A stretch of DNA of 64,000 nt from Hormiphora californensis (lineage: Eukaryota; Animalia; Ctenophora): positions 2,418,001 to 2,482,000 of the forward strand of contig CM035351.1 in NCBI GenBank assembly GCA_020137815.1. Reading direction: 5' to 3'. Positions within the stretch are counted from its first letter, which is position 1; each line of letters opens with the position of its first letter. Under the pieces are notes generated by a model. The model had not been told where the DNA came from. It saw nothing but the letters and a program-made list of their open reading frames with translations, and ran no database searches. This document shows positions 3,603-59,200 of the stretch, in pieces. Made by a program: the position numbers and the translations under genes.

Positions 3603-6600
3603 CCCTTTGGAGACGATTGGGTCACAGGTGACCCACAACTTTGAACCCATGTTGATGTAGCGTCTTTCTAGACCATATTTGAAAGTTTTAAATCGTTTCC
3701 AGGATTGAACCATACATTTTTCTAGCATTTTGAGGTCGTTTTGAGCCTCTGAAGTTGTCGACTTTGGAAAGCAGGGCCAAAACAGTGAATTTGGTAGGCA
3801 AAATGGGTAGTTTAATGGCCATATCTCAAAATTGGTACGAGTATACTTAAAATGGACTTGGAAAATGCAAGAAAAGTGTGTATTTTACCCCGGGGTAAAG
3901 TTTCAGGGTGATATTCCAAATTTTGTGCCTCTCAGAGGCCTTCAAAGTGCTGGGTCACCTGTGACCCAATCGTCCCCTAACGCTAAAACAGGAATTTGCA
4001 TTTTACGAGCATTTCTAAAGGAATGGCTCCCGATAAAAGTCTAAAACGGCATTTTTTAAACAGGTGCTAGCGACTAACCGACTCCATCATTGTTATCTCA
4101 ACATCTTAGGGAGTCGATGAAAAAATTTTTGAGATCCGTGCTCCTTCAGAAAATTTTTCATCTCGGCCAATTTTGAAATTCTAAAATCGGCTACAGATGA
4201 GATAGAGAGGCCCATAGGGTGTGCAAACTGTGCAGAATGGTCGGGTCATGGCTGCAGCCATCACGGAAACTTGGTGGCGGGCAGAATACTCGGACGCACA
4301 GGTTAATATTCCTGGTTTTTCTGTCATCCGCAGCGATCGGGAAGGTAGGGTTGGGGGTGGCTGTGCCCTCTATCTCCACTCATCGGTGACCCCTTCCGAT
4401 CAGATCACATTTTCAGATGAAAGCAACAGTGTTGTGGCGGTATACATTCCAAACATGAACTGTATTATCTCGTCAGTTTACAGGGCTCCCACAGTGCCTG
4501 TGAACCTAGTTCTTGGGATTTTGGAGGAATTTATCTCACGTCACTCGTGTGAAGATTGTCCTCCAGATGTGTTTACGCTTGGTGACTTTAACATGCCTCA
4601 GGTAAACTGGACATCAGTATCAGCGGATCAGGGAAATGCTCTGGTTGACTTTGCTGAGAGAAATTTCCTTACCCAGTTGGTTACAGAGCCTACTAGAGGA
4701 CGGAACATTTTAGACATTGTACTTACAAACAGGGTGGATTATGTTTTTGACACCGATGTATCAGCCACCCAGATGTCGGACCACTCCATGGTGTCTTGTG
4801 TCCTCGGAATCGGGATCCACCAGTCCAAAACAGAACGTGCAGCAGCTGGAAAAGGATTCAAGGCCCTTGACTACCACAACGCAGATTTTACTGCTGCAGG
4901 AGAGGAGTTGAGCAGTATTGATTGGGACACACTCCTATCCTCTTGTATTTCAGACGATGATGGCCACTCAATTGTGCAGTGTATCAGAGAGAAGATACTA
5001 GAGGTATTTGAAAAACACAGCAAGAGAAAGAGGTTTGGTACCCAGAGAAAGAGAGATCCCTACCTGAGAAGACTGAAAAGGAGGCAGAAAAAGCTGAACT
5101 CTCGGATGAAACTGGCCAAGCAGAGATGCTCACACCAGTCCCTCATCGATAAACTCGAACGCAAGATAGACAAGACAGCCGATAAGATTAAGGCGTACTT
5201 GTTAGGCCTGCTGGAAGTAAAGGAGAGGAAAGCCATTGACACTATCAAATCAAATTCACGGTTTTTCTGGTCCTTTGTCAACAAGCACCGAAAAATCAAA
5301 TCGAGTGTGGCTCCACTCCTGAGACCTGATGGTACAGTGACTGATGACCCTCTGGAAAAGTCAAATATTCTCCAGTCGCAATATGTAGGAGTATTCAGTG
5401 ATCCGTCCATGTGCTCGGTTGAGGAGGCTATCAAGGACATTCCTTCTACGACCTGCACGCTAGATGAACTTGACTTCACCCCTGGTTGTATTGAAGCTGC
5501 ACTGGCTGAATTGGACCCCTACGCTGGAGCACCTTCAGATGACATACCTGCGGTTATACTATCAAAGTGCCGGAAACAGCTAGCATACCCACTTTGGTTG
5601 CTCTGGAACCGTTCATTCACTGAGGGTGTTGTACCAGGTTGTCTCAAACGGCAACAGGTGACCCCAATTTTCAAAAAGGGTTCAAAGATGGAGGCTAAAA
5701 ACTATTGCCCTGTTGCCCTCACATCCCATATGATAAAAACTTTTGAAAGGGTTGTGAGGAACAAAGTTGTGGATCACCTGGAGGGAAATGGAATCTTCAA
5801 TGATGATGACACTTCACACGTAGGATTGAGAGCTGTTCCGGCATGGGGTACTGGGATCGGCTCCAACATCTTGGTATCTTGTCCCTCCAGCGGCGTCGTG
5901 AGCGATACATGATTATCCATGTCTGGAAGGTTCTTCATGAGGTAGTTCCAAACGGCACGGGTCTCCTGTTTACTGAGCACACCCGTCTTGGTACCAGAGC
6001 ATTGGTCCCCCGTTACAATTACCTCGCTCAAAAATCCATATCTGGCCCTTATGACTCATCATTCGGTGTTAGAGGAGCGCAGTTGTGGAATTCCCTACCC
6101 CGTGCAGTGAGAGAGTCAACATCACTGCTCGAGTTGAAACAGTCCCTTGGGTCCTACTTAACCACCATCCCCGACCAGCCACCTGTCCGCGGTTACCGGG
6201 TGGAGCACAGTAACTCCTTGATTGATTGGAGAAATGACCCCAGTGTGTTTAAAGAGATGGGCGAATCATAGAAATGTGTTTTGCTTTTCATTGTCATTTG
6301 GCTGATACATATAACCTGCTGACTTTCCATGTCATCTGAGTGTTGGCTCCTTTTGAGCTAAAGCTTTGTGTACAATACTAAATTTATTTACGAATGTTTA
6401 CGAATGTTTACGAATGTTTATATAAGTGTTATGAACAAACATAGGGACTAAAATGAGCGGTTTTCGAGTTATCGGGCAAAATAGCGGCAAAATCTCAATT
6501 CCTATTTTAGCGTTAGGGGACGATTGGGTCACAGGTGACCCAATAGAAATACAGGTGGTAGAACCAAAATTCCTTTTCCTGCGTTCAAGTAGGTTCAAAG

Positions 6601-7763: not shown

Positions 7764-8180
7764 TCAACAAAAGAAAAGTTTCTCACTGATCGAAGATTTG
7801 GAAATGTACTGGGAGAGTTTATCGCCCGTTGCACAGCCCATACTGACCGTGCTGGCAATGTACCCTGGCATGAAGATGTAAGCGGTATAGAAGGACATGG
7901 AGAGAACAAAGATGAGGGAGATATTGAACATCCTCCTCTCCCACGGCTCCAGACAGTACAGACCTGAGCAGGGGGGGGGGGGGGGGGTCATTTTGGTATG
8001 GGAGATATTGAATGGGGGGGGGGGGGTTAGTTTGACATTTTAGTTTGTAGGATTTTATTGTGTCCTAGTTTCTGTAGCTGATCACACGTAGTACGTACCT
8101 GTCCAGAGGCTGTATTTCATCCAAATGACCCAGAAGAAGTACTTTAATCCTGATCTGTCCTTCACGTACTCTTGCTCCAT
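7764..8180 (-). CDS. SPTSSA: Serine palmitoyltransferase small subunit (SPTSSA/B family), 2 exons
   Basis: Exon 1 MEQEYVKDRSGLKYFFWVIWMKYSLWT is spliced (GT ~8098, AG ~7964) to GLYCLEPWERRMFNISLIFVLSMSFYTAYIFMP, matching the LY.LEPWER..FN family motif. Confidence 0.88.
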
Positions 8181-9993: not shown

Positions 9994-12900
9994 AGAGAGA
10001 AAAAGAGAGAGGAAGAAAAAAGATTGAGAGATTGATGGTGTGCACAGAAAACGATATGAAGAAGAGAGACAGGAAGAGCAAGACGCGGCCAGGTTGAGAG
10101 AAAGGGAGAGAAAGGGAAAGATAGAAAGAGTGAGCAAAAGAGGGAGAGACAGAGAGAAAGACAGAGAGAGTGATCAGTGTGAGCAATTCTAATTGCCATT
10201 TCCTCGTCATCTGCGTTTCCCAAGTATTCCGTGTTTCGTTAACTTCTCTTGATTTGGTCATCTGATCATCTGGCCGGGTCGGTGGCATGTCAATCGGTGG
10301 AGATGGACACGGCCGGGTCATGAGGGCCCGTTTAGCCAGCCAGGATTCGGGTAGCAGTAAGATACTGTTGAGGTTCAATGCCCCGCCCAGACAAAGCCCC
10401 TATAACACCAACCCAAATGGACGTCCCTCTTCGCTGAAGGATAAGGGAAGTGTGAAGAGAGAAGGACTGCAGAGTCTCCAATATCAGTTAGGGGCGGGAG
10501 GGAGTAACCCTGCTCTCACTGACAAGAGTGCCTGGAGGAGGGTTAAGGGGGCATTCATGAAGGCACGGAAACCATCCTACTTGCCACCCACGGACGGAGC
10601 TAGTAACTTCTTTGTGACGGTTATTGTGGGTGGAGACCGGTTCAAAACAAGGAAGAGCACCCTGGAGTACTTTCCCGATTCCCTGCTGGGAGGTCCTGGA
10701 ACAGCTGCCGAGTATTGGAACGAAGACCGGGCTGCGTATGTGTTCCCAACCCGGTGTCGCATGTCTTTTGAGAACATCCTCTACTTTTACCAGACTGAGG
10801 GGTACGTGTTGAAGTGTCCCGAGTCTGTTCACATGGCAACCTTCAAGGAGGAGTGCCTGTTTTTCAAGCTCCCTGAGGATGATATAGCGAGGTGCGAGCA
10901 CGGGGAGGTACTGGACATGGTGAAGAAGATGGAGAGTGAACCAAAAAATGAGGGAACACTCAACAAGATTGGAAAGAAGATCATGGCACCGGGGTCTCTG
11001 ACAAAGAAAGTTCTGGGGGTGATTGACATGATAGCAACAGTGGTGTACATCCTAATTCTCATTACAATGACTGAGTACGTGATATTCCGATCTGAGAATG
11101 ATCTCACTCAGGTCATCCTAACCTACCTGTCTGCCTCCTGTGTGGGATGGTTTATAATCCACTATCTCGTTATGCTGCTTAGTACTACAGACAAGAAGGG
11201 CCATTGTTTGGGGTTGTTGAGTCTGATTGATTTTCTTGTCGTCTCCTCCTTTCTCATGGACTTCTTTAGTCAGTACATGTTTGAGGACCAGACGCTCCGG
11301 AAGAAGGTGACAGAGGCAAGAATTCTAATTGGCGTCGCTAGGCAACTGTGTATAGCCCGGTACTCTACACTTCTGTATTGTTTGGGTGTTGCAGTGAAAC
11401 GCTCTGGCAAGGATCTCCTACACATTCTCTACCTCCTGATAATTCTCATCCTGGTCTTCTCATCTGCTGCCTACTTCTTTGAGACAGACAGCGGGCTGCA
11501 CATTGATAACAAGGAACGTATGTGGAGGGAGATGGATAAAGCCATTGTGGATATGAAGGTGGAAGAAGAGACTCTATTCTCTGATCTGCAGTATGTGGCT
11601 AGGAATGGGACTCAATGGGCCCATAACCGGTATATCGAGGAGACAAGTGCTGCTGCCATTTTCAAATCCTATATAAACGGAACCTCTCTAATGAGACTGG
11701 ACCCATCGCGGTGGCTTTCCATTGACCAGTACACAGAGAAAAACGGCCGGCCAGACAAAAACAGTTTCGTCTCCCAGGTGATATATACGAGGTTTATAGA
11801 GAAGGTGAACCTGACACTGCGATTCCGGCCGGTTATTCGGAATGGAAGTATGATTATCATAATGGTGGAGAACTTTATACCGATATGGGTGGGCAACTGG
11901 GGTATAATAATTGAGATTGAGTCCATGTTTACCAGTATTCCTGCCTCTCTCTGGTGGGGTTTCGTCACCATAACAACAGGTTAGAATTATTTATTGCCAT
12001 AGCAACACAATGGCTCATAGTATCGTTATGTTGTAGTGCACCCAATGTTGCGGCCCTACTAGGTATGTAGTAAACAATGTATGTATGAGTGATGATAATG
12101 TTACCCAAACATAGTCACTCAACCTGTGTTATGCTTGGTTGAACTACTACTCTACTCATTTGTCCAGCCGGAAGGAGAAAACAAAACTTCCTCACTGATA
12201 TGCGGCTAATAAACAATCAACCGATCCTTATTCTCTGTCAGCTTGGTTGAAACATACAATAATTCCCCCCCCCTCTTTTTCAGTGGGTTACGGTGACCTA
12301 GCACCCCGGACAGCCTGGGGAAAAGTTATCAGCGCAGTACTTGCCCTAACCGGGATTCCTCTCATTGCCATCCCACTCCCTCTGATTATGAACGAGTTCA
12401 CCAACCAGTACCAGGAGACAAAACGGCGGGAAGAGTTGGAGAGACAGGCAGGGAGGTTATACAAACAGCGGGCAGCTGAGAGGAGCAGAGTGGCCTCCAG
12501 GGAGCCAGATTACAGCTCACAAAACGATGAAGAAAGTGAGGATCGGAGGAAGAGGTTGTTGAGTGTGGTCCGGCTGTTTCAGAGTGAGGTGTTCAGACGG
12601 GGCTCATTGTTTAAAGATGAGTCTATTGTGAAAGAGGAGAGTGAGAGTGAGGTGGTGGGAGAGGAAGATGGAAATGATGTGGGGAGTGGAAACCAAGAGA
12701 GGGAGGAAGGGGATGAGGAAGGACAGTGGAGAAATGCAGGATTCAGAAACACATACTGAAGAAGACATTGGAAGTCTTGAAGGTGAAGAAGTGGATGAAC
12801 GAGGGAAGACGGCAGACTGGAAAACAGTTAGGAGAAATACACGGAATGAGGGATAATAAGACAAGAGGAGGAGGCAGAAAGAGAAAGTCTGCTAAATGAT

Positions 12901-15773
12901 GGGGAACCACATACCTGATTATTCTCTCCAGCTGTTGTCCAGTTCATAGCTCGGGCAAATTCCTCAAAGCTCTTGCGTAGGTCAGACCAACAATTGGATA
13001 TTCCGTACTCCTACAGGCAATGAGAGACAATTGATATCAGAAACTCAGTTTGAATAATGTGTAAATTTGTGTGTCAACTACATTATTTTATCTAACAATT
13101 ATTAGTCAGCATTTTAACGAAGTTTATGACAAAAAAGAGCAGATCAGTAGTTTACTAGTACCCTCACCTCTCGTGTTTGAAGGTCCTTGATAGAGGCACA
13201 TTCCACATGGTACTGTATAACACGGCGTAGTAAGGACACTGCCATTGTTTCACTCAACTCCACACCACCCTTCTCCTTACCCACTGAAGACAACATCGGG
13301 ATATCTTCGGTAATGAAGTTGAACGTTGTTCTCTTTTGTGATATTAGCTTATGATGAATGGTAGAAAGGTTTAATTTGTTAGTACTCACCGTTAGAGAGG
13401 ATTAGCGGTACGAGTTCCCTCACCAACATTCTCCTTACTGGGTTAACAGCGCTCTGGTAACCCAAGGGACCCTCGTGTCTCGTCAGAACGGTAGCTGCAT
13501 TGATAGCGTGGGGGTCTACCGAGGAGGGGTAGTTTCGCATCATCTGGGAGGTGGGAGATAAAGTTAGGGTGTTAGAGATAGGAGGGTACAGTGTTTGAGA
13601 TGGGAGGAGGGCCAGGGTCATTCCAATTATGAAACTTAATAAGTTGGCAAAATGTTTTCACTGGCAATAATTAATAAGCTAATACGCAGCTCTTGCTAAT
13701 CACGACAGACGGCACACAGATCTCACTGAATAGAAGTTGTATTGATTGAAATGGTTGATTGAATGAAGTCTGTGTGCGCGTGTAAATTGCGCGGCACCCT
13801 CTACTCGTGAGGTGTTTGGCAGTCGCGCGGGGAAAGAATAGTGTGTATATACAGGGTGGGCCACGGATTGTTGGTAAGGGTTAGCGAGTTGTCCCGTCAA
13901 AACGGTGATAGTTGCGAGAATAAAAATTATGGGAGCACTCTGGATCAATTTCTTGGTAACTTTTTCCATAATTTTTTGTCAAAAATTCGAAAATTCATTT
14001 TTCATTCCTTCATTCATTTCTCGTTCATTTATGATGTGAGCATCCTAATTTTCCATCATGGTGCTATTTTTCTTTGGCTTGAATTTATCTTTCCAATGAA
14101 CACCATAAAAATGAAATTGAAGCACCAGGTCACGTTGCAGTTGAGAAAATGCTCATGCATGATTTTGGCTCTTCCTGCGACTTTCAATGAGATGTATCAC
14201 GGTTCCCTTTTGTTCAATCTTTTTCAAAATTTGGGTGAACATTGGATAAACAAAGATCTTTGCTCACAAGAAAAATCAAGGTCAAAACTCAAAGTTCATT
14301 TTTCATTTTTGGTAGTTCATTCCACTCATTCAGGAACTAACATCCCTAAAGTCATGAAAAGTTTTGGGTTTTGTTTGGCCTATGCTCTGCAATGCCAGAG
14401 AGGTGTAGTAGCGTGTCTCCGGGCTAGTTTTTGGGTGTCCATGTGATCATGATGATACCTGACACCTTATTTGGGCCATAATTAAGAGATTTTCTCAAGT
14501 TGAAGCATGTGACTTGGGGTTTCTGTGATTGATATCGTGAAACAATGTTATGGGATCCTATAGCACCCCTAAAATGATGATTAATTCAACAAAATGAGTT
14601 GATTTATGATCGAAATTGTTCGTTTAGTTGAGTTTGTCTTCGGTTTAAATCTTTTCAATAATAAATCAACTCATTTTGTTGAATTAATCATCATTTTAGG
14701 GGTGCTATGGGATCCCATAACATTGTTTCACGATATCAATCACAGAAAACCAAAGTCGCATGCTTCAACTTGAGAAAATCTCTTAATTATGGCCCAAATA
14801 AGGTGTCAGGTATCATCATGATCACATGGACACCCAAAAACTAGCCCGGAAACACGCTACTACACCTCTCTGGCATTGCAGAGCATAGGCCAAACAAAAC
14901 CCAAAACTTTTCATGACTTTAGGGATGTTAGTTCCTGAATGAGTGGAATGAACTACCAAAAATGAAAAATGAACTTTGAGTTTTGACCTTGATTTTTCTT
15001 GTGAGCAAAGATCTTTGTTTATCCAATGTTCACCCAAATTTTGAAAAAGATTGAACAAAAGGGAGCCGTGATACAGCTCATTGAAAGTCGCAGGAAGAGC
15101 CAAAATCATGCATGAGCATTTTCTCAACTGCAACGTGACCTGGTGCTTCAATTTCATTTTTATGGTGTTCATTGGAAAGATAAATTCAAGCCAAAGAAAA
15201 ATAGCACCATGATGGAAAATTAGGATGCTCACATCATAAATGAACGAGAAATGAATGAAGGAATGAAAAATGAATTTTCGAATTTTTGACAAAAAATTAT
15301 GGAAAAAGTTACCAAGAAATTGATCCAGAGTGCTCCCATAATTTTTATTCTCGCAACTATCACCGTTTTGACGGGACAACTCGCTAACCCTTACCAACAA
15401 TCCGTGGCCCACCTTGTATGTGACAGGTGGGGCACATCTTGCAAAAACAGATCTCTTTATTTCACACTCGACAATCCCCATCTTCTTCTCTTGAAACATG
15501 ACCCGGCCATGATCTTGTCTGTGAATATGGAGATCCTTTTACCAGGGGGGGATTAGCATACAATTATAATGTATTTTCCCGCTCTTCCTAAACCTGGGAA
15601 TCTTGGGCGGGTTTACTTTTCATGAATATTGATAGAATTGGTAGAATAAGGATTGGATAGGCCTTTATTCCCTCTCTACAATTAATTCCTTTCTAGAGAT
15701 CTATTGTATTTGTTGATGCCCCACTACCGTAGAACTGGGGTCTGAATTCACTCTCTCTTTTTCTTATCTTTTT

Positions 15774-16118: not shown

Positions 16119-17458
16119 CCACTACACGCACCACTCCCACATGGGGCCGTAAGGTCCCATGTGGGAACAGGGTTAAATCCCCCGAGCCCGGATCCTGTTG
16201 GATCTGAGGGCCCGGAGGGCCTGCGGAGTAAAGGTAGGTAGAACAATGTACAAAGGGGTAGGTTGAACAATGTACATATAGGTTAAGGTAAGGAAAAATA
16301 AAATAGGGGAAGTAAAGCTCATGGTGGCAGAGCAAAAGACCTCTTAAACTATCTGGAAAGAAGCTCAGCTTGCTGGAACGGAATCTAAGAAGAGTCAACC
16401 TATCAGGAACAAAACGTCTGGAACAAAACTTCTGGAACGGAATCTAAGGCAGTCTAAGAGCAAGCAGGAACGGGTGAATCGGTAAAAAACTAATACAAAT
16501 ATACATCGAGTGGGGTTACAGGAGGCTAATTACATGTCGAGAACTTTCCGGAGCGTGTTCATCGAGTTAAAGAGGACTGACTTTTGGAGCTGTGAGGGGT
16601 AGATTTGGCGGGTTATAGCAGTCAGGTACTTCTCCAGTCGGGGGCTGACTCCGCCAAGAGCTCCAATCACGATAGGGATGACCGTGGCCTTTTTAAGTTC
16701 CCAAATTCGTGTGAGCTCCCTCCGTAGTTCTTGGTACTTCTCGATCTTCTCCATCTCCCTGTCCGAGACTGACCTGTCTTTTGGTACAGCGACGTCGATC
16801 AGTAGCGCCTCCTTCTTTGATTTGTCTAGAAGGACCAGGTCAGGTTTACATGCCTCGATGGGGTTGTCCGTCTGTATGTGGAAGTCCCAGAGGATCTTGT
16901 AGTTCTCATTCTCGAGCACTTTCTCTGCATAGTGGCTCCACCACTTTGATTCAGCAGGAAATCCGTAGTCCTTGCACATTCCCCAGTGTAGGGCGGCAGC
17001 TACTCGATCGTGTCTGAGCTTATAGTCTCCGTTGGCAAGTTTCGTGCATCCGTTTAGGATGTGTTCCACCGACTCGTTGTGTTGGTTACAGATACGGCAC
17101 TTCTCAGTCACTCCTTGCTCTTTCTCGATAGCAGCCTTCAGCCAGTTTGTGCGAATGGCTTGATCCTGGGCAGCAAATACATCGGCTTCGGTGTATCTGC
17201 TGAGGCTCTCTTTGTTGAGCCAGGCCCAGGTCGCATCAGGGTCGCATCCCCCTTCTTCCAGTTGCTTCAGGAATCTTCCATGTAGGACTTTGTTTTTCCA
17301 TTTCTCTACAAGTTCCGTCTGTAATCTTTCTTTCAGGGCTCCTGAGTCTTCTGGAGGTTTAGTTAGCATATCTTCATTTTGCATCGCCGTGTGGAGGGCA
17401 CGTATCTTGGGGTCCGTAGAATTACTGAAGAATGTCACGAGTCCTGTCTCTTCCTTCA

Positions 17459-17531
<73 letters not shown>

Positions 17532-18643
17532 GGACAGCGATAGTCGATAGATTATCAAAACAGCTCTCTTTTTCTTTTCCGTGCCATAGCTTTGTCCTAG
17601 CAATATCTCACACATTGATCTAAGCTCTCCCATTAAATCTCAGGATACAAGAAACTACCACTCTTCTTCAGCTGTTCTCCCCTATTGCTTGGGCTGTTCC
17701 ACTACTATTAACGAACTTGTCGTCTTCTTTCATTAGTCTCTTCACTCCTCTCCATTTATTTACCCATGACTACTGGGTTCTGAGTAGAAGATGTAAAAAG
17801 AGGCCACTTCTAATATCCATTTTTCCGTCTTTCTGTATAGACTCGCTTGCCTTGTTCGACCCTCCCCGCGCCCCAAAACAAAGACTCGGATACTAGGATC
17901 AGCAATACATTTTGCCTGCTTTCCCTGGAAATATGTTTCCCTGTTTTGCCCCTATTATATAATTTGGGTGACAAGTCCCATGTTCACAGTAAACAGTTGT
18001 AGTACATGTTAATATACCTGGAGGACAGTAGCTGTACATTTTAGTTTGTCTGTGTGAGAAGTTGCCACAGTTAGATAAACACTCTGCTGCTCAGATTCGT
18101 TTAGATGCTCAAACAACTCTATCTGTGGAGAGAGAGTAAAGTATACGTTGGGTAATTAGCTGTTTATTAGAATAATCTCATTTATGGGATTTATAAACAC
18201 GTGATATTAAAAAACGGCTCATATATTCACATCTCACTCACATCTTTAGAGGGCGTGCCAGCGCTGACAAGTGCCAGCAACTCCACCAGGTATTCTACCA
18301 GCTCAGAATTGTCCGGGAACTGCTTCATGAGACGGGAAAACTGTTCCCGAGCGGCGGCCAGGGGCGAATGACAGAGGTGCCATTTGTAGAGTGTTATGTG
18401 GAGTGCACAGTTGGATGGATATAGAGCCAATCCACACTGCAACCATATCTGAAGGGAGGGGAGTAGGAGGGGATTAGGAGTGGGGAGTAGGAATGGGGAG
18501 GGATTAGGAGTGGGGAAAGAGGGGATTAGGAGTGAGGAGTAGGAATGGGGAGGGATTAGGAGTAGGAGTAGGGAGAGAAGAGGTTTAATGGGGATTGGGA
18601 GGCCGGAATGGGAACAGAGGGTGAACCTCTCTTTTTCATCCAT
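8370..18643 (-). CDS. INTS10: Integrator complex subunit 10, multi-exon; 5' exon structure approximate
   Basis: N-terminal WLQCGLALYPSNCALHITLY..FSRLMKQFPD (18240-18448); exon ~9290-9447 RWRWFSLFLCDVSLYTG; C-terminal LGSLLVICQ..LLEYITQIELLEELLYL..KEDVVKLLKGHVTSCREN..VLKFLLNNK. These match INTS10 motifs as recalled (WLRIFLTDMIIYQG; NYVTNIDMLEEFAYL; KEDF..QVSRCGEN). Further GT-AG exons lie at ~9558-9842, 12915-13010 and 13168-13552. Confidence 0.82.
9905..10010. repeat. (GA)n microsatellite; others at ~15775-15880, 16030-16114, 17461-17529, 62122-62410, 63925-63968
   Basis: Directly visible dinucleotide runs. Confidence 0.98.
10287..12759 (+). CDS. Shaker/Kv1-like potassium channel (T1 + 6TM), 2 exons (10287-11979, 12284-12759), nested antisense in an INTS10 intron
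   Basis: T1 domain VIVGGDRFKTRKSTLEYFPDSLLG..SFENILYFYQTEG..FKEECLFFKL; S1-S5 hydrophobic segments; pore FTSIPASLWWGFVTITT/VGYGDLAP restored across the GT-AG intron 11980-12283; S6 IAIPLPLIMNEF. Confidence 0.93.
13852..15416. mobile_element. Foldback Tc1/mariner-type MITE, ~755-bp inverted arms with ~55-bp spacer, TA TSD
   Basis: Termini TA|CAGGGTGGGCCACGG ... CCGTGGCCCACCTTG|TA. The mirror ORFs 13841-14446(+) and 14822-15499(-) are near-identical. Confidence 0.93.
16115..17460 (-). mobile_element. R4/Dong-type (RLE) non-LTR retrotransposon 3' fragment inserted in a (TC)n microsatellite
   Basis: CCHC knuckle CRIC..ESVEHILNGC, RHD motif, and restriction-like endonuclease KPDL..LIDVAVP..EKIEKYQEL..PIVIGALG. 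A 3' UTR spans 16115-16529, and both ends abut (TC)n. Confidence 0.92.
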
Positions 18644-23807: not shown

Positions 23808-25828
23808 AACTTACTTACTTGATACTTGATACTTGGTTCGGTCTCCTCAATCATTCGAGTGGCCGGCTCCAAGTATCCTCGCTCGTAGCGACGTGAGCTG
23901 TCTCCATTCATTTCTGTTCTCTGCAGTGTTAGTAATGGCACGGAGAGACTGGGATTGACCCGTAGCGTCTCGGTAATCGTTCAGAACACAGGAAGTCCAG
24001 GTTTTACGCGGTTTTCCTCTGGAACGTCTCCCATGACTAGGCACCCAGTGATAGAGTTTGTTGGGCACCCTATCCTCAGGCATTCTAATCAGGTGTCCAA
24101 ACCAGCGGAGTCTCCCATTGCCAATGAACTTCGAGATTGGTTCTATCCCCGCCCTCTCCAGTACCTCCCTGTTAGATACTCTCCTAAACCACTGTATTCT
24201 CAGGATTCTACGCAGGCACCGTTGGTGGAATGCCTCCACCCGGCGATCTTGGACCTGAGTAGTTGTCCAGGCCTCACAACCATAGAGAAGCACCGTCAGA
24301 ACAGCAGCCCTGTAAATCCTAATCTTGGTACAGGTCCTGATATTACGGTTGTACCAGATCCTACAGAGCATACTGAATGCACTATACGCCTTCCCTATCC
24401 TGATACCCAGCTCCTTGTCGATGGTACCATCAGAGGACATAGCCGATCCGAGATAGGTAAAATTGGTCACCTGCTCAGCCGGATTGCCCTCCACAGATAT
24501 GTTGACCGTATCCGCCTCCGAAAAAGGACGCTGGTTAAGACCCTTAGAAAATGCCATAACTTTAGTCTTTTTCGCATTGATCTTCAAACCAGCATACCCT
24601 GCGTATTTAGCCAGTAAATCCGTTGACTCCTGGAGCCCTTCCTCTGTATCATCCATTACAGCCATGTCATCCGCGTAATCGAGGTCCAGAAGCCACTCCC
24701 CTCCATCCCCACTCTCAACACCCTGAAGAGTGAACCCCCTGGAGATAGTCTTGTTACACTCAGCAAGCTGAGCTGCCCAATTTATAACGATGTTAAAGAC
24801 TGGCGGCCCCTGGATGTCGCCCTGACCAGTACCACTAAGAACACTGAACCAATCGGAGAGTTCCCCACCATGTTTCACTGCACTCACTGTACCATCAAAA
24901 AACGCACGAATTATCCGGATATATTTCTCAGGAAGACCATAATGGCGAAATGATGCCCAGACAAATTCTCTGTTTATACAATCGAATGCTGATTTAAAGT
25001 CTATAAAGTTTATGTACAATGGTAAATTATATGCTATACACTGGTGTATGATAGTACGGAGGGAATAAATCTGATCCACACAAGAACGGTTTCGCCTAAA
25101 ACCGCACTGGTTTTCCCTGAGTGCCAGTTCCAGGCCTGATGCCAACCGATCCAGCATTACAATCTGAAACAACTTAGAGGTTGTTGACCGCAGTGTCATA
25201 CCCATGTTGTTAGAACAAATACTGGGGTCACCCTTTTTAGGGATCACCGAAATAACCCCCTTCAACCACTCCTCCGGGACCTTCTCCTCCCTCCAGACTC
25301 CACCAAACAAATCCACTAGGGGGCAGACAAGACCACTCGAGCCATACCGAAGCTGCTCATTCGTAATCCCATCAACGCCAGGACTCTTATGATTCTTGAG
25401 CCTCTTCAGTGCCGCTAAAACTTCTCCACGAGAAGGTGGAGGATCATCCTCACCAAGGTCCTCAAAACACGGGTCCACATCCAGACCATCCAGATCCGAG
25501 AGCTGTGATGTAGTTACAGGGGGGTTTAACAGCTCAGAGAAGTGCTCCGCCCAGCGCTCCCGCTGTTGGACAGGATCAGCAATGAGTTCACCGTTCCTAT
25601 CGCGAACAGCAGTACCGCCACGTTTCCTCACACCTGACAGATCTTTCATGTGCTGCCAAAGCTCCCTCTGCCGCCCATGCACCGCAGCATTCTCCAAATC
25701 CGATGCCAAACTATCCGCCCACCTATTGTCATCCAAACGTGAGGCCTTCTTGACCAGCTTGTTAAGCCTGGAGTACTCAGATCCACCAGCGGGATCATTC
25801 TTCTTCAGCTCAGCACGTTGAGAGATAA
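23808..25828 (-). mobile_element. RTE-clade LINE, 5' truncated, with a complete RT domain
   Basis: RT motifs KSPGVDGI, QCGFR, FIDFKSAFD, GTGQG and YADD; RTE-type C-terminus RLRWFGHLIRM..GRRSRGKPRKTW; short tandem 3' tail at ~23808-23835. Confidence 0.93.
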
Positions 25829-25830
25829 GT

Positions 25831-27758
25831 CTGACTTCCAAACGAGCCTGCAGTCTCTAACAGAATACACTGTTGCTATATGGGTGAAACCACACCTAGC
25901 CCCCGACCTTGTGTGTCCCTTCTCTTATTCAACTAGTGAAGACGCGGACGAGACGAACGTTTTGGACGTTTGGTTTGCCAGTGATTTCATCGAAATGAGA
26001 GTAAAGAATGGCCCGGAATTTATAAGTGTAAAATGTAAGTAAAATCATTCTCTATCTGTTGACTGCAGCTACTAAGTACTAACTGAGTTCTACAACCAGG
26101 TGAATCGTGTACTCACCCTCCAATTGGGCAGTGGACACACTTTGCTGGTCTATTGAACTCTACAGGGGCCTACGTCTTTATAAATGGACTTGTTGTAGCT
26201 AGTGTTGGAATCTCGGAAAATGTCACCGTCAGCATGGGCGGTATACTGATTATTGGGCAGGTAACCTTCAACAAATATAACTTCAGAAACTTTTTACCAA
26301 CATTAGAAATGTATAAATACTCCATTTAAAGTCGCAAAATCTTTATTAACTTAAAATATTCCCAGGACCAAGACAAACTTGATGGAGGATTTGAAGTAGA
26401 GCAGGCATTCACCGGTCTGGTTGAAGCCATGTGGTTTTCAAAAGCTAAAAGTGAAGGAGAAATCAGGAGACTTTATGAAGAACGGGGGACAGTGGAAGTG
26501 AACCTTCTAAACAACGATGTCTCTCTTGAAACCCACGGTGCAGCTAAAATTCTATTCATGACCAGTAAGTCTAGAAACACATTTTGTTGTTCAGTTATTC
26601 ACTTTCAGGCCAATGCTCTGACCACAGTTCTCGCGCGCTCTGCGTGCAGAACAAATTTGAGAGAAATGAGAATGGGTTAGGCCAATGCTCTGACAGATTG
26701 ATCAACATTTTCTATTTTGTCTGACTCACAAGGATATTGATGTTATCTTCTAGTTTTCCTTCCTGAAAGTTCTAACACCACCATCTTTCAGCCCTCTACC
26801 TGCCCTCTCCACAAAATACCAGTAACTACGCCAGAGCTGACTTCTCTCAACTGAGCCTGCAGTCTCTAACAGAATACACTGTTGCTATATGGGTGAAACC
26901 AGACCTAGCCCCCGACCTTGTGTGTCCCTTCTCTTATTCAACAAGTGAAGACGCGGACGAGGCGAATGTTTTGGACGTTTGGTTTGCCAGTGATTTCATC
27001 GAAATGAGAGTAAAGAATGGCTTGGAGTTTATAAGTGTAAAATGTAGGTAAAATCATTCTCTATCTGTTGACTGCAGCTACTAAGTACTAACTGAGTTCT
27101 ACAACCAGGTGAATCGTGTACTCACCCTCCAATCGGGCAGTGGACACACTTTGCTGGTCTATTGAACTCTACAGGGGCGTACGTCTTTATAAATGGACTT
27201 GTTGTAGCTAGTGTCGGAATCTCGGAACCTGTCACCGTCAGCATGGGGGGTATACTGATTATTGGGCAGGTATCCTTCAACAATATTAGTTCAGAATTCA
27301 GATACTAGAAATTTATGAATGTTCCATAACATAACGAAATCTTCAGACATTTTTTACCAACATTAGAAATGTATAAATACTCCATTTAAAGTCGCAAAAT
27401 CTTTATTAATTTAAAATATTCCCAGGACCAAGACAAACTTGATGGAGGATTTGAAGTAGAGCAGGCATTCACCGGTCTGGTTGAAGCCATGTGGTTTTCA
27501 GAAGCTAAAAGTGAAGGAGAAATCAGGAGTCTTTATGAAGAACGGGGAACAGTGGAAGTGAACCTTCTAAACAACGATATCTCTCTTGAAACCCACGGTG
27601 CAGCTAAAATTCTATCCGCCGATGACATCTTTACTTCACCGAGTGAGTATTTGGGGTTTCACCGTCGGATTGGGGAATTTTATCGCCGCAGATTTGCTTG
27701 CAACGCTAACGAAGCTAGTCAGTACACCCAAAGGTTGTGCAAGATATTTTCTAACTGA
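25831..27758 (+). pseudogene. Second copy of the double-pentraxin gene, lacking the signal exon and the start of exon 2
   Basis: Near-identical to 21921-23807; begins directly at the RTE 5' junction; earlier stop (TGA after KIFSN). Confidence 0.8.
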
Positions 27759-28428: not shown

Positions 28429-28983
28429 CTATCGGTTATCCCCGTCCCCTTTCATAACTCCTCTAGCTCTCCGAGATTCAATTTTGTCCTTATTTGCTTG
28501 TATTACCTCGAGCAGAGTAAAGCCTAATTTGGGTGCTAAACACCTTTCAAATAGTCCAATAATCCTTCCAATTCCATCCAAAATGGCACCTATTTTCTCA
28601 GCTGTTAGACCGTCATCCCGAATACTTTTCTTAGTTCTCCCACAAATACTTCCAATATGAAGCAGCACTGCCGTCATCGTACCCTCAACAGTGTCAGGTT
28701 CAGTAACAGGTGCTACACTGTCAGGTGTAGACGGTCCTAATTCCAGAGACATTGCAGTCAGGTACCAAGTTACATCCCCCATTTCCTTCAGAACAGCCGT
28801 CTTATCACCCCCAGACAGGGCCGCTTGTAGCTCGCAGAACTCCTCAGTCAGCCCGCAGCAGAGGTAGGCTAAGTTGCGGGGGATGGTGTTGGGTGGGAAG
28901 ATGGAGGTAGATTTAACGAATGTAGCGTATTCAGACATACTGGTTAGAGGGGCTGAACTCCCTTCATGAGAGAGGTGGACCAT
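28429..28983 (-). CDS. MazG-like nucleoside triphosphate pyrophosphohydrolase, prokaryote/phage type, intronless
   Basis: GLTEEFCEL (EExxE) and KEMGDVTWYL (ExxD) metal-binding motifs, plus the C-terminus LEVIQANKDKIESRRARGVMKGDGDNR. Confidence 0.88.
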   Translation of the reverse strand: MVHLSHEGSSAPLTSMSEYATFVKSTSIFPPNTIPRNLAYLCCGLTEEFCELQAALSGGDKTAVLKEMGDVTWYLTAMSLELGPSTPDSVAPVTEPDTVEGTMTAVLLHIGSICGRTKKSIRDDGLTAEKIGAILDGIGRIIGLFERCLAPKLGFTLLEVIQANKDKIESRRARGVMKGDGDNR

Positions 28984-29274
28984 TGTGAAAGGATCTGTCA
29001 GGGAGGTGTGTTATTGGTTACGAAGTCACCCCTATATTATTGCAGATAAAGGGGGTGTTAGGGGACTATACATTACTGCAAAGTGTTTTTATTTTAGGGT
29101 ACACATTTAGAGAGAAGACAATGGTTTCTGTGTAAAATAACGGTTAATATTTGATTAAAAAGAATACAGTAATTTCGCAGGTGTAGTAAAGAAAATAAAA
29201 GAGAGAGAGAGAATTATTACTGTTCTGTAACATTGCAGGGAGATGTGTGTAGTTAAATTAAATATTGTCTATTT

Positions 29275-31258: not shown

Positions 31259-31721
31259 AACTGGGAACTCAGATCGCTTTGCGCGGCTCTTTATGCCCCG
31301 CTTTGTATATTTTTCCGCCACGTCCATTAAATTGCGCCGCGCAGGTCTATAATATTAACGCCTGGCCCCAGCTAAAAAAATGTTTGGTTGGAATTTCATA
31401 TTTTTTGGAATTTCAACTAAACACTAAGAGGCGTGTGGTACCATTTATGCCGAGCGAAATTGATTTCAGAGTGACGTAATTTATTCTGTGTTTACCTTTA
31501 TAAATCGCTAGGGACGTGCGTGGTGTACCAGGAGTGGTGAATTATGCAGCCATTCTTTATTGTGTCTCTACCTCTTTTCTCCGTGTCCTAACACAATATA
31601 CCTATGGTACACCCGCACACGTGTTCCTTTTTCACTTTCCAGCCTTTTTTACTAAATTTTGGCTGTAACATAAGTGCGTGTCACAATAAGCTAACCTTTT
31701 TTACATTTTAGTGACAGTAAG

Positions 31722-33304
31722 ATGAGAGGCGGAGGATTTGGTGGACTTGCTATGGCTGCGGGGACTGGTGCCCAACCGATAGTAGATGAAGAGAGAGAAA
31801 GGGAAAATCGACAGTTGCAGAATTTTAATCCCCTTATGGACGACTTTAAAAACAAATCACCAAAGCGCTTTGGTCCAACTGTCTACGTTAATAACATTCC
31901 ACCAACCATGACAGAAAGTGGATTCAGGCAGTTCATTGAACAGCAAGTGGACATTACTATTACGAGCGTGAAGGTCAGAGAAAGTTCAAGACCTGGTCAA
32001 TTATATGCAATGGTCGAATGTGCCACTATGGAAGGCTGCATGGAAGTCATAAGAGTGCTAAACAACTACCAAATGGGTAGCCGAACTCTGAGGGCTGAGA
32101 TGTCCAAAACCACCTTGGGTCGAGGTGATGGTAATCGCCGTGGTGGACATGGAGGAGGTAGGGGTATCTCACCTCGGAATGGATTTGAACACAGACCTCG
32201 ACACAGAAATAGTAATGGCGGTGGCTCACACTCCTCCATTAAGTCAGGTGATCGTGAGTGCAACTTTTGTGGAGGACCAGCCGGAATGCATTGTTCTACT
32301 TGTGAAAGGGTCAGTTACTGTTCCGGTACTTGCCAAGGCAAAGATTGGAGTGACCACGAGGCACAATGTTTCCCAAAAGCAGCAAAGAAAAGCAGTGACC
32401 CCATGATTGATGATCTACTTTCAAAGATATCAATGAAATCGCCCAATGCAAATAGCGCATCCCCAGCAATTGTACCTTCTTCGTCTACAAGTAACCACAC
32501 AGCAAGTACAACAAAGAAACCAGTGGCACCTCAAAAACCGTGCACCGTCCCAGAGCCTAATACCATATCCATGGACCCTTCAAAGCCTATCATCGATCAA
32601 CTACAGATGGGTGATACATTCAAGGGGCTTTGGAGCGGAGGGGAACATCCAACAGAGTTTTTCATCCAGCCGTATGACTTTGGAGATGCCTTGGGGAAGC
32701 TGAGCGAACAATTGACACAACTATACCCTCACTTGCCGCGGAACCCTGATTTCTTCCCTGCCAAAGATGACCGTGTAGTGGCTCTCTTCGAGGGAGATTG
32801 GTACCGATCAAAGGTCCTGTCTGTCGATGGCCAGGGACAGTATTCTGTCTTGTACATGGACTATGGAAATGTGAGCACAGGTTTCACGGGAAGACATTCG
32901 TGCTCTCCTCAGCCATACGGATCGTCCAGCAATGGCCCTAAAATGCAGTTTATCTGACGCTGAATGTGGCGATGTGGAGTGCTTCAAAAGCTCCCTCCTC
33001 AATAAGATTGTGTCTGTAACCGCAGTGGGGAGTGTGAATGGTGTCGTGTCTGTCTCCATCACCCTTCCCTCCGGGGAAGATCTGGGAGAAGAAGATCAAC
33101 ACCACTATCCCAACTGCTATAGAAGAGGCCCCCGAAGATGCTGCTGCCACTCCCGCTCCTAGGAAACCCAGATCTGTTACTGGAAGCTCACAGGAGGCTC
33201 GTATAAAGGATCTGGAGGAGAAGGTTCAACAACAAGCGAGGGAGATAAAAGAGCTGAAGGTATGGAAGGAGAGAATGGAGGAGTTAATCAGGGGTGGCAT
33301 GTAA
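31722..33304 (+). CDS. RRM + MYND zinc finger + extended Tudor protein (Vreteno/TDRD1-like), intronless, two apparent +1 G frameshifts
   Basis: RRM (TVYVNNIP..YAMVE), MYND (CNFC..CSTC..YCSGTCQGKDWSDHEAQC), Tudor (GDWYRSKV..VLYMDYGN). Removing one G at ~32880 gives VSREDIRALL..PAMALKCSL; a second shift at ~33085 leads to a coiled-coil end. Confidence 0.82.
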
Positions 33305-33629: not shown

Positions 33630-35190
33630 ATGTCCCTCCTGTTGTTATATGGGGCGTACGGTATTATTCTTGGCTTGGTCTTGTTCGCTGCTTTAATAAT
33701 TGGCATCAGAGCTACCTCTGCCGTGCCTACAAAATCCAGGTGAGATCTCATGTATTATCATCATATTTGTGTATAAACGGGGATGTCATGGAAGAGGGAA
33801 ACTTAGCCTTTTTGTTGGTTTAAAACCCTCTTAGTCGGTCCATCTCAGTATTTCCCTCACACGGTTTATAATGTCAGTACTTCCCTCACACAGGCTGCAG
33901 TTGAACTTCAAGGACTCCAAAACTGGGGAGGAGCACCCGTTTCCCTCTATTGATGAGGAACCCACTAAAGACCTAACTATCGTGATACCTGCTTACAATG
34001 AGAGTCAACGATTACCAAAGTAGGTGATATAACTAGCTGTTTATGATAGGAGACACTAATGTCCGAACATTAGTGCGGCTGAGATGTTTGGCACCTGTAA
34101 TAATTCTAGGCGTGGTGAACTTGTGTTGCTCATACCACGCAATGCTAGCGTCCCTTACAGACAGTCTATCAACAGTGATGGGCAGTGATATATTGTTATT
34201 GTTTGAGCCGTGTATCTCAAATTTCAATATCAATTAAGTGGTGGAATGAGAGGGAGAACATTATCGCGTGAGAGCAGTTATACATTTTAACTCATATAAT
34301 CACCATGTGACAACTAATCCCTCCCACGATTAGATTTTTGGATGTGTTGATACCCTACCTGAAGACGGTTAGTTACAGTTACGAGATCATAGTGGTGGAT
34401 GATGGTAGCAAAGACAAAACTGTGGATGTGGTTCAGTCGTATGTGAGAACACATGGTACTGATATGATCAGGTACGTGAGAACACATGTTACTGACATGA
34501 TCAGGTACGTGAGTCACCCTATCACGTGATATCGAACAATTTTTCTGAATATTTGCAAATTCTGCACCCACCCTGTATCATCACATCACATCTCCAATAA
34601 ACACCACATATTTCCCCTTTATTAGGTGTATGAAGCTGCCCTGTAACAGAGGAAAGGGAGGTGCAGTGAGACAGGGAGTACTCAGTGCCCGAGGTACAGA
34701 GATCCTATTTGCTGATGCGGACGGTGCCACTGATATCAATGACCTGGGTAAAGTCCGGGCTGGCCTGGCCTCCCTCAACACCAACATGGGTATATCGGCT
34801 GGGTCACGTGCACATCTCCAGGATGATGCTGTTGCCTCCAGGACAGTCATCAGGAATGTGCTCATGTGGGGTTTCCACGTGTTTGTCCAGGTTGTCGGGG
34901 GAGTTAGTGATGTCAAGGATACGCAATGTGGATTTAAGTTGTTTACACGGAAGGCCGCTGCGGCGGTTTTTAAAAATATGAACGTGGAACGGTGGGCATT
35001 TGATGTGGAGATCTTTGTTATTGCGAATATTCTGGGGATCAAGGCGTGTGAGGTGGCGGTTAACTGGCAAGAGATTGATGGCTCTAAACTGGTCCCCATC
35101 TACAGTTGGTTGGAGATGGCTAAAGATTTAGCGATGATTAGGGCTAGGTACCTTATAGGAGCATGGTCTGTTAACGTCAAGGAGGAGTAG
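33630..35190 (+). CDS. ALG5: Dolichyl-phosphate beta-glucosyltransferase, 4 exons
   Basis: N-terminal TM exon, then LTIVIPAYNESQRLP, YEIIVVDDGSKDKT, NRGKGGAVRQG, ILFADADGAT, GSRAHL, DTQCGFKLFTR, RWAFDVE, EVAVNWQEIDGSKL. Confidence 0.95.
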
Positions 35191-56200: not shown

Positions 56201-59200
56201 CTGGCTTCTGGGATGATTTCTTACTAGACTTGGATGTCTTGGACGTCTTGGAAGAGTCACTAGAAGAACTGTCGCTTGAGTCATCCTTTTTCTGAGAAGC
56301 ATGCTTCTGGGATGATTTCTTGCTAGACTTGGATGACTTGGAAGTCTTGGAAGTCTTGGACGTCTTTGAGGAGTCACTAGAAGAACTATCAATGGATCCA
56401 TCCTTTTTCAGTGATTCTGGTTTCTGGGATGATTTCTTACTAAACTTGGAAGTCTTGGACGTCTTGGAAGAGTCACTAGAAGAACTGTCACTTGAGTCAT
56501 CCTTTTTCTGAGAAGCAGGCTTCTGGGATGATTTCTCGCTAGTCTTGCATGACTTGGAAGTCTTGGACGTGTTGGAGGAGTCGCTAGAAGAACTATCACT
56601 GGATCCATCCTTTATCAGTGATGCTGGCTTCTGGGATGATTTCTTACTAGACTTGGATGTCTTGGACGTCTTGGAAGAGTCACTAGAAGAACTATCACTT
56701 GATTCATCCTTTTTTTGAGAAGCAGGCTTGTGGGATGATTTCTTGCTAGACTTGGATGACTTGGAAGTCTTGGACGTCTTGGAGGAGTCAGTAGAAGAAC
56801 TATCACTGGATCTATCCTTTATCAATGATGCTGGCTTCTGAGATGATTTCTTACTAGACTTGGATGTCTTGGACGTCTTGGAAGAGTCACTTGAAGAACT
56901 GTCACTTGAGTCATCCTTGTTCTGTGAAGCAGGCTTCTGGGATGATTTCCTGCTAGACTTGGATGACTTGGAAGAGTCACTAGAAGTTCTGTCGCTGGAG
57001 TCATCCATTTTTTGCGAAGCAGGCTTCGGGGATGATTTTTTGCTGGACTTGGAAGAGTCACTTTTACTGGAGTCATCCTTTTTCGGGGAAGCAGGCATCT
57101 TCGATTTTTCTTTGTCAGATTGTGATTCTATTTCTGTCGCTTTCAATTGTTTTTTCTGATCATATTTAGGAGTTGACTTTACGGTATGGACAATTTCAAT
57201 TTCAATTTCATCCGATATTTCTTCAGTTTCTGATAAGGTTGAGGTTCTTTTGTCTTTACTTCTTGATTCATTGTGGTTGAAGTAGTCGGAGTTGATTTGA
57301 CTGTGTCCATCACATCCACTTTTTCTTCTTCAGATAATTCTTCTGTATCAGTCATAGGTGAATTTTTGTGTTGTTTTGCTGCCCTATCCACATGCTTTTT
57401 GGACTGTTTCTTGATCGGTTCTGCCTGTAGAAGTGAGGAGGAGGAAAATTGCAAAGTCAGAATTAGAGTCATTTTGTGATTCAAGACAAGTTGAGTTCAG
57501 TCCATCTACACGGATTTCTAACTCTGTTCCAGCTAGTCTAATACACTCTTCCACTGTGTCCTCTCTCTCCATTGTGGCTCGATAAATTCCCGGTATTTTG
57601 GTGTCTAACAACGCTGTTAAAGCAGAGCCATCTCTCCAAGAGACATCTAGATCCCTCACTTGGACCTTGTACGCTCTTATCGCTCTATTGACCGTGTCGA
57701 TAATGAGTGGTTTGAGTGGTAAATTCCTGGCCTGTGCCTGTGCTAAGGTAATTTGTGCTGGTTGGTCAGCATCAGAGGACGAAGAGGCCAATTCTTTCCT
57801 GACTTGTGGTTTTGGAGACCCTTCCGGTCGCTGGTAGACTTTCCTCACGTTAGTCATGACCGAGTTAAGACTTATCTTTCTGGGTTGTAGTCGAGTTGCA
57901 ACAAGCTCAGATAAGAATCGCTGTTTATGAATAAGGGACAGTGTCCCATTCACCCACCCACCAAGTGGGACATCACTCACTCCGATACCAAGTTGCTTTT
58001 CAGCGACCTCCAGACAGATCTTAATCCGAGTAATACTGTCAGTGAACTGGTACTTGGCGTACAACCCGGGAATGTAGCTATCCAACAGAGCTAACAACGC
58101 AATCCCATCATCCCAGTCCTCAACCAGGTTCTTGACCGTTATTTTACACGGCTGAGTTCGTCGGTTGATTCTAGCGAGCAGCTCAGGAAGATCGAACAGC
58201 TCGGTTATCTTCTCAAATTGGAGCTTTGGCAGCTCCTCCGTGAAGCAACCAATAAATGTAGCTAGAGCTCTCTCTGGTACACTCTGGTATACCACGCTAT
58301 ACCAACACAGCTGCACAGGAATGTTTAAGTACACTTTGGAGAATTTGAGGCAGGTTTTCACTCTCTCCTCCGCTGAAGGGTTGGCCATGTTTGCCTGGTA
58401 GAACCCTGGAATTTGTTGGTCTATCAGGATACTGATGAGTCTCCCGTCTCGCCATTCTCTGTCCCATGTCTTGACAGGATCCAGGGAGTAGTTCCTCAAG
58501 ATCAAGTTGGTTCGTTTCAGGATAACAGCCGGGTCCATGCCTTCTTGCTCCAAAATAGGCAGTGGGATACGAGTGTCATTCAGTAGGAACTTGTCAAACC
58601 TACTCAAATACCGAATCATAGCCGTTTTGTTGACTTTTGGATTGGTGAAATCGTTGACACTGATGACTCGCTCTACCTTGAGGTAATCCTCCGCGTACAG
58701 CATGCACTTTTCCACCCGGACACTCACCTCCACCGTTTTGAAAGTGTCGTGAAATCCGGGGATACAAGTATCAACAAGGACCGACAGGGCTATGCCGCTG
58801 TTCCAATCGGTGTTCAGGTTAGTTACCGGTTCTATCCTGGGAACGAGGTACTTGTTCAGGAACGTGATGAGAAGTTTCTCCGGGTCCTTTCCCTTTCTCT
58901 CCAGCTCACTAACGGTGAGTCGTCGTTTTCTCGGTTGTTGGACCCCCTCATCTTCCTCCGGGTCCTCAATGAATGTGGATCTCTTCATATAGAAGTCTGC
59001 CACTGCCCAAAGCAGGGCCTTTGTGGCAAACACATCCCCCTTTCCGATATCCCTCTCCCCGATACTGGTGAGCACGACCCCGTCTTGTTTCAGAACATTG
59101 AATGCGGTCCTCAGATTGTCAACCCTCTGGAAGAATGATTTGGGTTCTTTCTTGTGGGGAAGTCGTCTTTCAGCGACAACCTCGAGCAGCTCACATAGTA

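Follow-up and report, generated by a model that had tools for sequence, protein, structure and literature searches.

We found that a potassium channel gene of the ctenophore Hormiphora californensis represents a real, conserved, and apparently undescribed Shaker variant, in which a domain-sized, probably glycosylated turret is combined with a voltage sensor stripped of charge. The gene lies in the window, by which we mean the whole 64,000-nucleotide stretch of DNA analyzed here, and tblastn detected no second Kv gene in these 64 kb. Pfam identified T1 (BTB_2), Ion_trans (PF00520), and Ion_trans_2 (PF07885) in the channel, the closest PDB structures by phmmer were the Kv1.2/2.1 chimera and Drosophila Shaker, and the closest named relatives were ctenophore sequences. 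Two hallmarks of the Shaker family, a T1/BTB domain and a six-helix core with a TVGYGD filter, were present, and two others, a charged voltage sensor and a short turret between S5 and the pore helix, were absent. Judged from its sequence, the channel is a Shaker by descent for which voltage gating is only putative, and it is not a K2P.

The gene has two exons on the + strand. The first lies within a single open reading frame (ORF) at 10266-11984, and its coding part (10287-11979) specifies the N terminus, T1, S1-S5, the insert, and the pore helix. The start codon is uncertain, with ATG candidates at 10287 (the first) and 10320 (the second) and a Pleurobrachia bachei model that begins at 10557; three homologues also have the N-terminal PR..PY motif encoded upstream of 10557, which favors an upstream start. 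The T1 (BTB_2) tetramerization domain is encoded at 10614-10895 (ORF residues 117-210; Pfam PF02214, E=2e-15), S5 at 11415-11483 as placed by alignment to the Kv1.2 chimera (mean hydropathy, 2.58), and the pore helix with the start of the selectivity filter at 11928-11979, aligned to residues 368-389 of the chimera. A phase 1 GT..AG intron (11980-12283) splits the TTVGYG filter motif at a position common to the homologues, and the ORFs of genomic homologues end at the same point. Coding exon 2 (12284-12759; Pfam Ion_trans_2, E=6.5e-9) provides the GYGD of the filter, so that an intact TVGYGD is completed across the intron, followed by S6 and an acidic C-tail whose far C terminus is uncertain. 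The S6 gate, PLPLIM, is encoded at 12373-12390, with an additional proline after the glycine hinge. At its start, one oligo-dT RNA contig links the final bases of exon 1 (a loose end of 11 bases) to exon 2; this is a short sign that the channel gene is transcribed and spliced at the filter intron.

Two further observations concern this part of the locus. The P. bachei protein (P0003) matches exon 2 at 98% up to 12618 and then at 12737-12802 in another frame, leaving the acidic C-tail at 12619-12802 out of frame with that model past approximately residue 615 of P0003. The difference could stem from an indel, an error in the model, or a small intron. Within the filter intron, the segment at 12151-12236 was matched by several contigs that continue into unrelated sequence, and it is probably a dispersed repeat.

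The original prediction had reported approximately 148 stop-free codons between SSAAYFFE and FTSIPASLWW, and positions 11484-11927 indeed hold 148 codons between these motifs. In a phmmer comparison with the Kv1.2/2.1 chimera, query residues 289-409 aligned to chain residues 245-368 and query residues 550-571 to chain residues 368-389, so that approximately 140 residues between the end of S5 and the pore helix had no match in the chimera. As had been expected of Shaker channels, this linker was short in the five ordinary Shaker-type proteins of our alignment, at 3, 6, 6, 7, and 12 residues. When the bases of these 444 nucleotides were shuffled 20,000 times, only one shuffle was stop-free in frame, the other two frames of the insert DNA contain 12 and 9 stops, and GC3 of the insert (0.57) is close to that of the upstream coding part (0.60). 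The four N-glycosylation sequons that had been predicted were all found, with NGT at 11604 and 11676, NLT at 11808, and NGS at 11841. Residue shuffles gave 1.2 expected sequons (p ~0.02), which alone places the window insert mildly above chance. Together with the homologues described below, these data support a coding, conserved insert that lies outside the cell by topology and has many glycosylation sites.

If most of the insert were an in-frame intron, splicing would leave an ordinary short turret, and we consider this very improbable. Twelve in-frame GT..AG pairs of at least 300 nucleotides do occur within the region, and contigs from three sequencing runs leave 11382-12119 uncovered, including the insert, a gap that we count neither way. 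Against an intron stand the protein-level conservation over five clusters of homologues described below, the rarity of stop-free shuffles together with the codon-like GC3, and candidate acceptors that are mostly purine-rich, unlike the genuine acceptor at 12283. The specific donor that had been proposed as a possible refutation, CAG/GTGATA with its GT at 11778, did not hold up. Its in-frame acceptors at 11870, 11915, and 11921 would remove just 31-48 codons, they are purine-rich without a pyrimidine tract, and the best-conserved part of the insert would be lost. Homologues also argue for retention. The 822-amino-acid ORF P0004, from a contig of 2,760 bases, continues across the filter junction with the insert whole, and three genomic members of the same cluster end just past TITTG, at the intron. 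Because P0004 spans the junction at which these genomic members stop, its simplest interpretation is a spliced transcript with the insert retained. A RefSeq model from Bolinopsis retains the insert as well.

A search with the insert recovered one protein, P. bachei sb/3462683 (P0003), which is about 97-98% identical, and a search with residues 1-530 recovered 25 proteins. The search for relatives sharing the insert, which had been suggested as a check, yielded four further clusters (P0004-P0007) that carry it at the same place, with 44-48% identity over 86-97% of the query. The insert thus occurs in all five clusters of the clade, at 148 amino acids in the window protein and 162, 149, 167, and 165 in P0004-P0007. 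Bolinopsis microptera XP_063673904.1 sits in the P0004 cluster, and on sequence grounds the P0005, P0006, and P0007 clusters are taken to be other ctenophores. With a profile of the five inserts we detected six proteins, namely the five known clusters and one match to the pore helix only, so that longer proteins yielded no additional member. A scan of metagenome contigs returned 65 loci in which the insert was untouched save for weak partial matches beside the pore helix.

In a quick tree of 22 proteins, the insert-bearing sequences formed one group (SH-aLRT, 100). The tree joined this clade to the Bolinopsis paralogue XP_063676830.1, also with an SH-aLRT of 100, a placement that carries a long-branch warning and was drawn from few ctenophore paralogues. 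This sister Shaker (P0008/P0038, the XP_063676830.1 cluster) has a turret of 38 amino acids with four cysteines and two sequons and has partly lost its S4 charges. Its turret is possibly an intermediate or possibly a second, independent turret expansion.

Conservation is unevenly distributed along the insert. All 10 pairs of clusters aligned above shuffles over the insert (z, 7.0-24.5), and we could divide it into a conserved N-terminal part of 42 amino acids (11484-11609), a variable middle of 51 amino acids that is longer in homologues and holds many of the sequons (11610-11762), and a conserved C-terminal part of 55 amino acids that leads into the pore helix (11763-11927). Pairwise z values were 5.9-16.3 for the first 42 residues, -1.1 to 2.8 for the middle, and 5.0-20.6 for the last 55. 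Invariant or all-hydrophobic columns numbered 13 of 42, 2 of 51, and 24 of 55 in these parts, and 14 columns of the insert are invariant. Identity of distant members to the window protein is 17-24% in the insert, compared to 54-57% in T1 and 61-64% in S1-S5. Helical hydrophobic moments of 0.37 and 0.53 in the N-terminal part and strand-like moments of 0.41-0.57 over three segments in the C-terminal part suggest two likely amphipathic helices after S5 and likely β-strands before the pore helix, a reading taken from five sequences and one model at pLDDT 34. A β-strand-like end had also been described in the original prediction.

Sequon density further supports an extracellular position. The five inserts contain 4, 9, 7, 6, and 9 sequons, above residue shuffles in every case, and the counts of 6-9 in the homologues were reached by none of 5,000 shuffles at the printed precision. 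Because sequons are dense in the insert and scarce in the longer cytoplasmic N termini, which hold 0-2, an extracellular, glycosylated location is supported, and we infer from topology and sequons that the insert is probably both. No extra membrane helix was found in the inserts, whose best 19-residue hydropathy of 0.77-1.57 (highest in the window insert) compares with 2.58 for S5. Cysteines number 0-2 per insert; none is invariant, and the window insert has none. Of seven pairs of close variants, three, all belonging to a single cluster, showed a significant excess of variation in the insert over the core, mostly in the middle part; in one cluster, 17 of 167 positions differed in the insert against 4 of 313 in the core.

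Neither Pfam, a PDB sequence search, HMMER, the protein atlas, nor Foldseek assigned the insert to a fold or family. AlphaFold2 gave no usable model, with pLDDT 40.5 for the full protein without an alignment and 33.6 for the insert with five sequences, and Foldseek of the insert model had no match at E 0.001 or better, a result that is uninformative at pLDDT 33.6. A four-copy complex prediction of the insert scored 0.00 with the alignment unused, and we counted it neither way. An HMMER search of 1.84 billion representatives, insensitive enough to miss known homologues too, returned two matches. Both were repeat proteins with scores summed over near-identical repeats, and we rejected them; for the PKD-repeat protein, the best single BLAST segment reached just 26.6 bits. 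Searches of the protein atlas gave nothing at 0.9 or above. Weak Pfam matches to DUF7422 and CsgE (E ~0.03) were likewise set aside, as they occurred in just one of the five members.

The original prediction had missed the degenerate voltage sensor, which alters what kind of channel the gene encodes. The S4 helix (11316-11366) lacks R1, R2, R3, and K5 and keeps R4 and R6. Across the five insert-bearing clusters, the residues at R1 to R6 read E/N/T-I-G-R-C-R, in contrast to R/K-R-R-R-K-R in all eight controls, and this charge-poor S4 is nearly invariant in the clade; four of the five clusters have an off-register arginine in S4. In the S2 helix (11118-11180), both acidic counter-charges are replaced in all five clusters, E1 by serine and E2 by histidine, and the S3 aspartate is retained. 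In Shaker, R1-R4 hold most of the gating charge, and with R1-R3 absent, this subunit is unlikely to be strongly gated by voltage. The near-invariance of S4 indicates a sensor that was remodeled and then fixed rather than one that is decaying. The sister paralogue XP_063676830.1 lacks R1, R3, K5, and E2 (one S2 acid), and Mnemiopsis ML00641a and ML21868a share by eye the glycine at R3 and the extra S6 proline; these sequences suggest that the S4 charges may have been lost stepwise. The gate reads PLPLIM in the window gene and in the two clusters with S6 available. It differs from PVPVIV by three hydrophobic changes, with both prolines retained and an extra proline upstream, and many Mnemiopsis Shakers likewise deviate from the PVPVIV gate.

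As a tentative best explanation, which we hold with somewhat less than even confidence, the gene may encode a K+-channel subunit that is insensitive to voltage, probably has a modulatory role, and bears a predicted glycosylated lid. The subunit would assemble through T1 with ordinary, voltage-sensing comb-jelly Shakers, and voltage dependence of the mixed channel would be shifted or flattened. The insert would cover the outer pore mouth as a glycosylated lid, shielding the pore from blockers or anchoring the channel; the conservation pattern is consistent with both insert ends folding together into a stalk at the membrane that would carry a variable, glycan-rich tip. In favor of this modulatory reading, S4 and S2 charges are absent together in all five clusters, and the ctenophore survey provides a precedent, in which no homomeric current was obtained from 7 of 16 Mnemiopsis Shakers, two of which form heteromers with a cnidarian Kv1 (10.1101/2024.12.09.627618). 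The variable, glycan-rich middle may also be better suited to shielding than to precise binding. Several observations stand against the same reading. Typical regulatory subunits, as described in PMC6279357, have gates with proline loss or polar or aromatic substitution, and PLPLIM has lost no proline and gained no polar or aromatic residue, so the typical regulatory-subunit marks are absent. Vertebrate silent subunits retain S4 arginines (Kv6 rows, by eye). With a near-invariant S4 and S1-S5 more conserved than T1, the pattern indicates a retained new function rather than passive-partner drift, which favors the rival explanations. For the shield in particular, the excess variation of the insert was significant in just those 3 of 7 pairs from a single cluster.

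One such rival is a receptor-like K+ channel, a type that the original prediction had put forward as a possible new Kv class. The channel would have abandoned voltage gating and would be opened or closed by an extracellular cue (a ligand, a partner protein, pH, or a mechanical tether) that the insert senses; being joined directly to S5 and the pore helix, the insert could act on the filter gate. We regard this rival as unlikely. In its favor, a single clade has both gained the insert and lost the S4 and S2 charges, conservation of the insert ends continues to the very borders with S5 and the pore helix and includes 14 invariant columns, the remodeled S4 is near-invariant, and the ctenophore survey offers non-voltage gating, rare in Shakers, as an alternative for its silent channels (10.1101/2024.12.09.627618). 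Against it, Pfam, HMMER, the protein atlas, and a sequence search of the PDB detected no known ligand-binding fold; distant members share just 17-24% identity in the insert, with conserved columns that are mostly hydrophobic, like a structural core; and charge loss predates the large insert, since the sister with the 38-amino-acid loop already lacks R1, R3, K5, and E2. In its fullest form, this rival would make a Shaker into a K+-selective, T1-assembled receptor gated via a domain of ~150 residues, either an inhibitory ionotropic receptor or a mechanosensor, which we judge rather doubtful from sequence evidence; if true, such a receptor would have arisen independently in the earliest-branching nervous system.

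Alternatively, the protein could be a background (leak) K+ channel convergent on K2P, a homotetramer open at rest with a frozen sensor and the insert as its cap. An intact filter with a hydrophobic, two-proline gate and a frozen, charge-poor S4 would fit such a channel, and the K2P cap, as described in PMC8436263, occupies the same position after M1 and ahead of the pore helix, forming an arch above the pore. We nevertheless give this a low probability, because four domains of 150 amino acids with 4-9 glycans each would presumably have to fit above one pore, and the insert showed no detected sequence similarity to K2P caps and has no conserved cysteine for a K2P-type disulfide. Lastly, the insert could be a loop expansion without function, tolerated in a Shaker subunit that is otherwise ordinary or decaying. 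Its middle third is unalignable, it has no confident fold, and an unrelated protein with S5-pore loops of 32-47 amino acids indicates that the position tolerates insertions. Conservation of both ends in a comparison of a cydippid with a lobate ctenophore (z, 7.3 and 8.9), a length held at 148-167 amino acids, and sequon enrichment in five of five clusters make this explanation improbable.

The rest of the window contains several other candidate genes and elements. An opposite-strand neighbor (12914-13657, -) has its end close behind the channel stop codon; an RNA contig skips 157 bases of it between 13009 and 13167, with CT..AC ends, and Pfam found no match for two of its ORF pieces. Beyond it, 13811-14446 (+) and 14822-15538 (-) are near-identical copies of ~600 bases in opposite orientation, judged from their translations, and may be the two arms of a foldback element. 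At 39001-60464 (-) lies one very large gene, or a pair of genes, in which an ORF with five calponin-homology (CH) domains (57384-60464, -; Pfam E=5e-65) is followed by ORFs of 2,878 and 2,535 codons with Ser/Lys/Asp-rich repeats and more weak CH-like segments. We also annotated genes of ordinary appearance for an F-box-like protein (1020-1826, -), a serine palmitoyltransferase small subunit (7764-8039, -), a MazG-like pyrophosphohydrolase (28429-29010, -), which is the least usual of these for an animal, an RRM-MYND-Tudor protein (31695-32957, +), and a family-2 glycosyltransferase (34549-35190, +). Non-LTR retrotransposon pieces with endonuclease and reverse-transcriptase domains lie at 4218-5912 (+) and 23847-25856 (-), and another, recognized by eye only, lies at 16530-17639 (-).

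Shaker channels serve as the standard example of voltage gating, and pore-blocking toxins bind to their outer turret, which is a short loop. The gene described here would imply that the Shaker scaffold can be rebuilt towards a K2P, TRP, or ligand-gated type, with the 38-amino-acid cysteine-loop sister and its partial charge loss offering a possible intermediate. Ctenophores are thought to lack many bilaterian transmitter systems, and the gene bears on how they may build inhibitory or sensory conductances. It is also a concrete candidate for the non-voltage gating that the ctenophore survey names as a possibility (10.1101/2024.12.09.627618). In a literature search that covered few subscription papers, we found no published description of the insert domain. 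The words "extracellular," "insertion," "turret," and "voltage sensor" are absent from the main text of the same preprint, which trims variable linkers from its channel alignments; such trimming may explain why the insert has gone unremarked. In the portion of the PMC11287247 supplements consulted, no row has the clade motifs, and no orthologue occurs among the 38 Mnemiopsis rows.

Among known systems, B. microptera XP_063673904.1 and P. bachei sb/3462683 are probably orthologous and share both the insert and the degenerate sensor; the former is automatically named "potassium voltage-gated channel subfamily A member 5-like," and the automatic names reflect neither feature. The nearest paralogue type is Bolinopsis XP_063676830.1, which matches Mnemiopsis ML00641a by eye and, like the window gene, has a glycine at R3 and a proline after the S6 hinge. 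With the ctenophore Kv1-like Shakers (the MlShak set; 10.1101/2024.12.09.627618), the channel has T1, six helices, and TVGYGD in common, but the insert clade differs in a turret of 148-167 amino acids rather than 3-12 (38 with four cysteines in the sister) and in the loss of R1-R3, K5, and both S2 acids. Silent and regulatory subunits (Kv5/6/8/9 and cnidarian regulatory Kv1/3/4) resemble the window channel in an atypical S6 and a plausible dependence on partners, whereas the window channel retains both gate prolines, shows hydrophobic changes only, and has lost S4 charges; a large ectodomain is not known from these subunits. K2P channels likewise sense voltage weakly or not at all and have an extra extracellular domain after the outer helix, ahead of the pore helix. 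However, the window channel has one pore domain with T1 and S1-S6 rather than two pores and four helices, and its insert, which has probable strands and no cysteine, is much longer than the two-helix K2P cap with its apical disulfide; the insert profile matched no K2P at E up to 10. Finally, the L5 turrets of Nav, Cav, and NALCN channels and the S5-P linker of hERG are enlarged, glycosylated loops in the same topological place. The L5 turrets span 15-105 amino acids according to PMC6259924, and the window insert, which belongs to a Shaker-type subunit, exceeds the lengths given there and has none of the cysteines conserved in those turrets.
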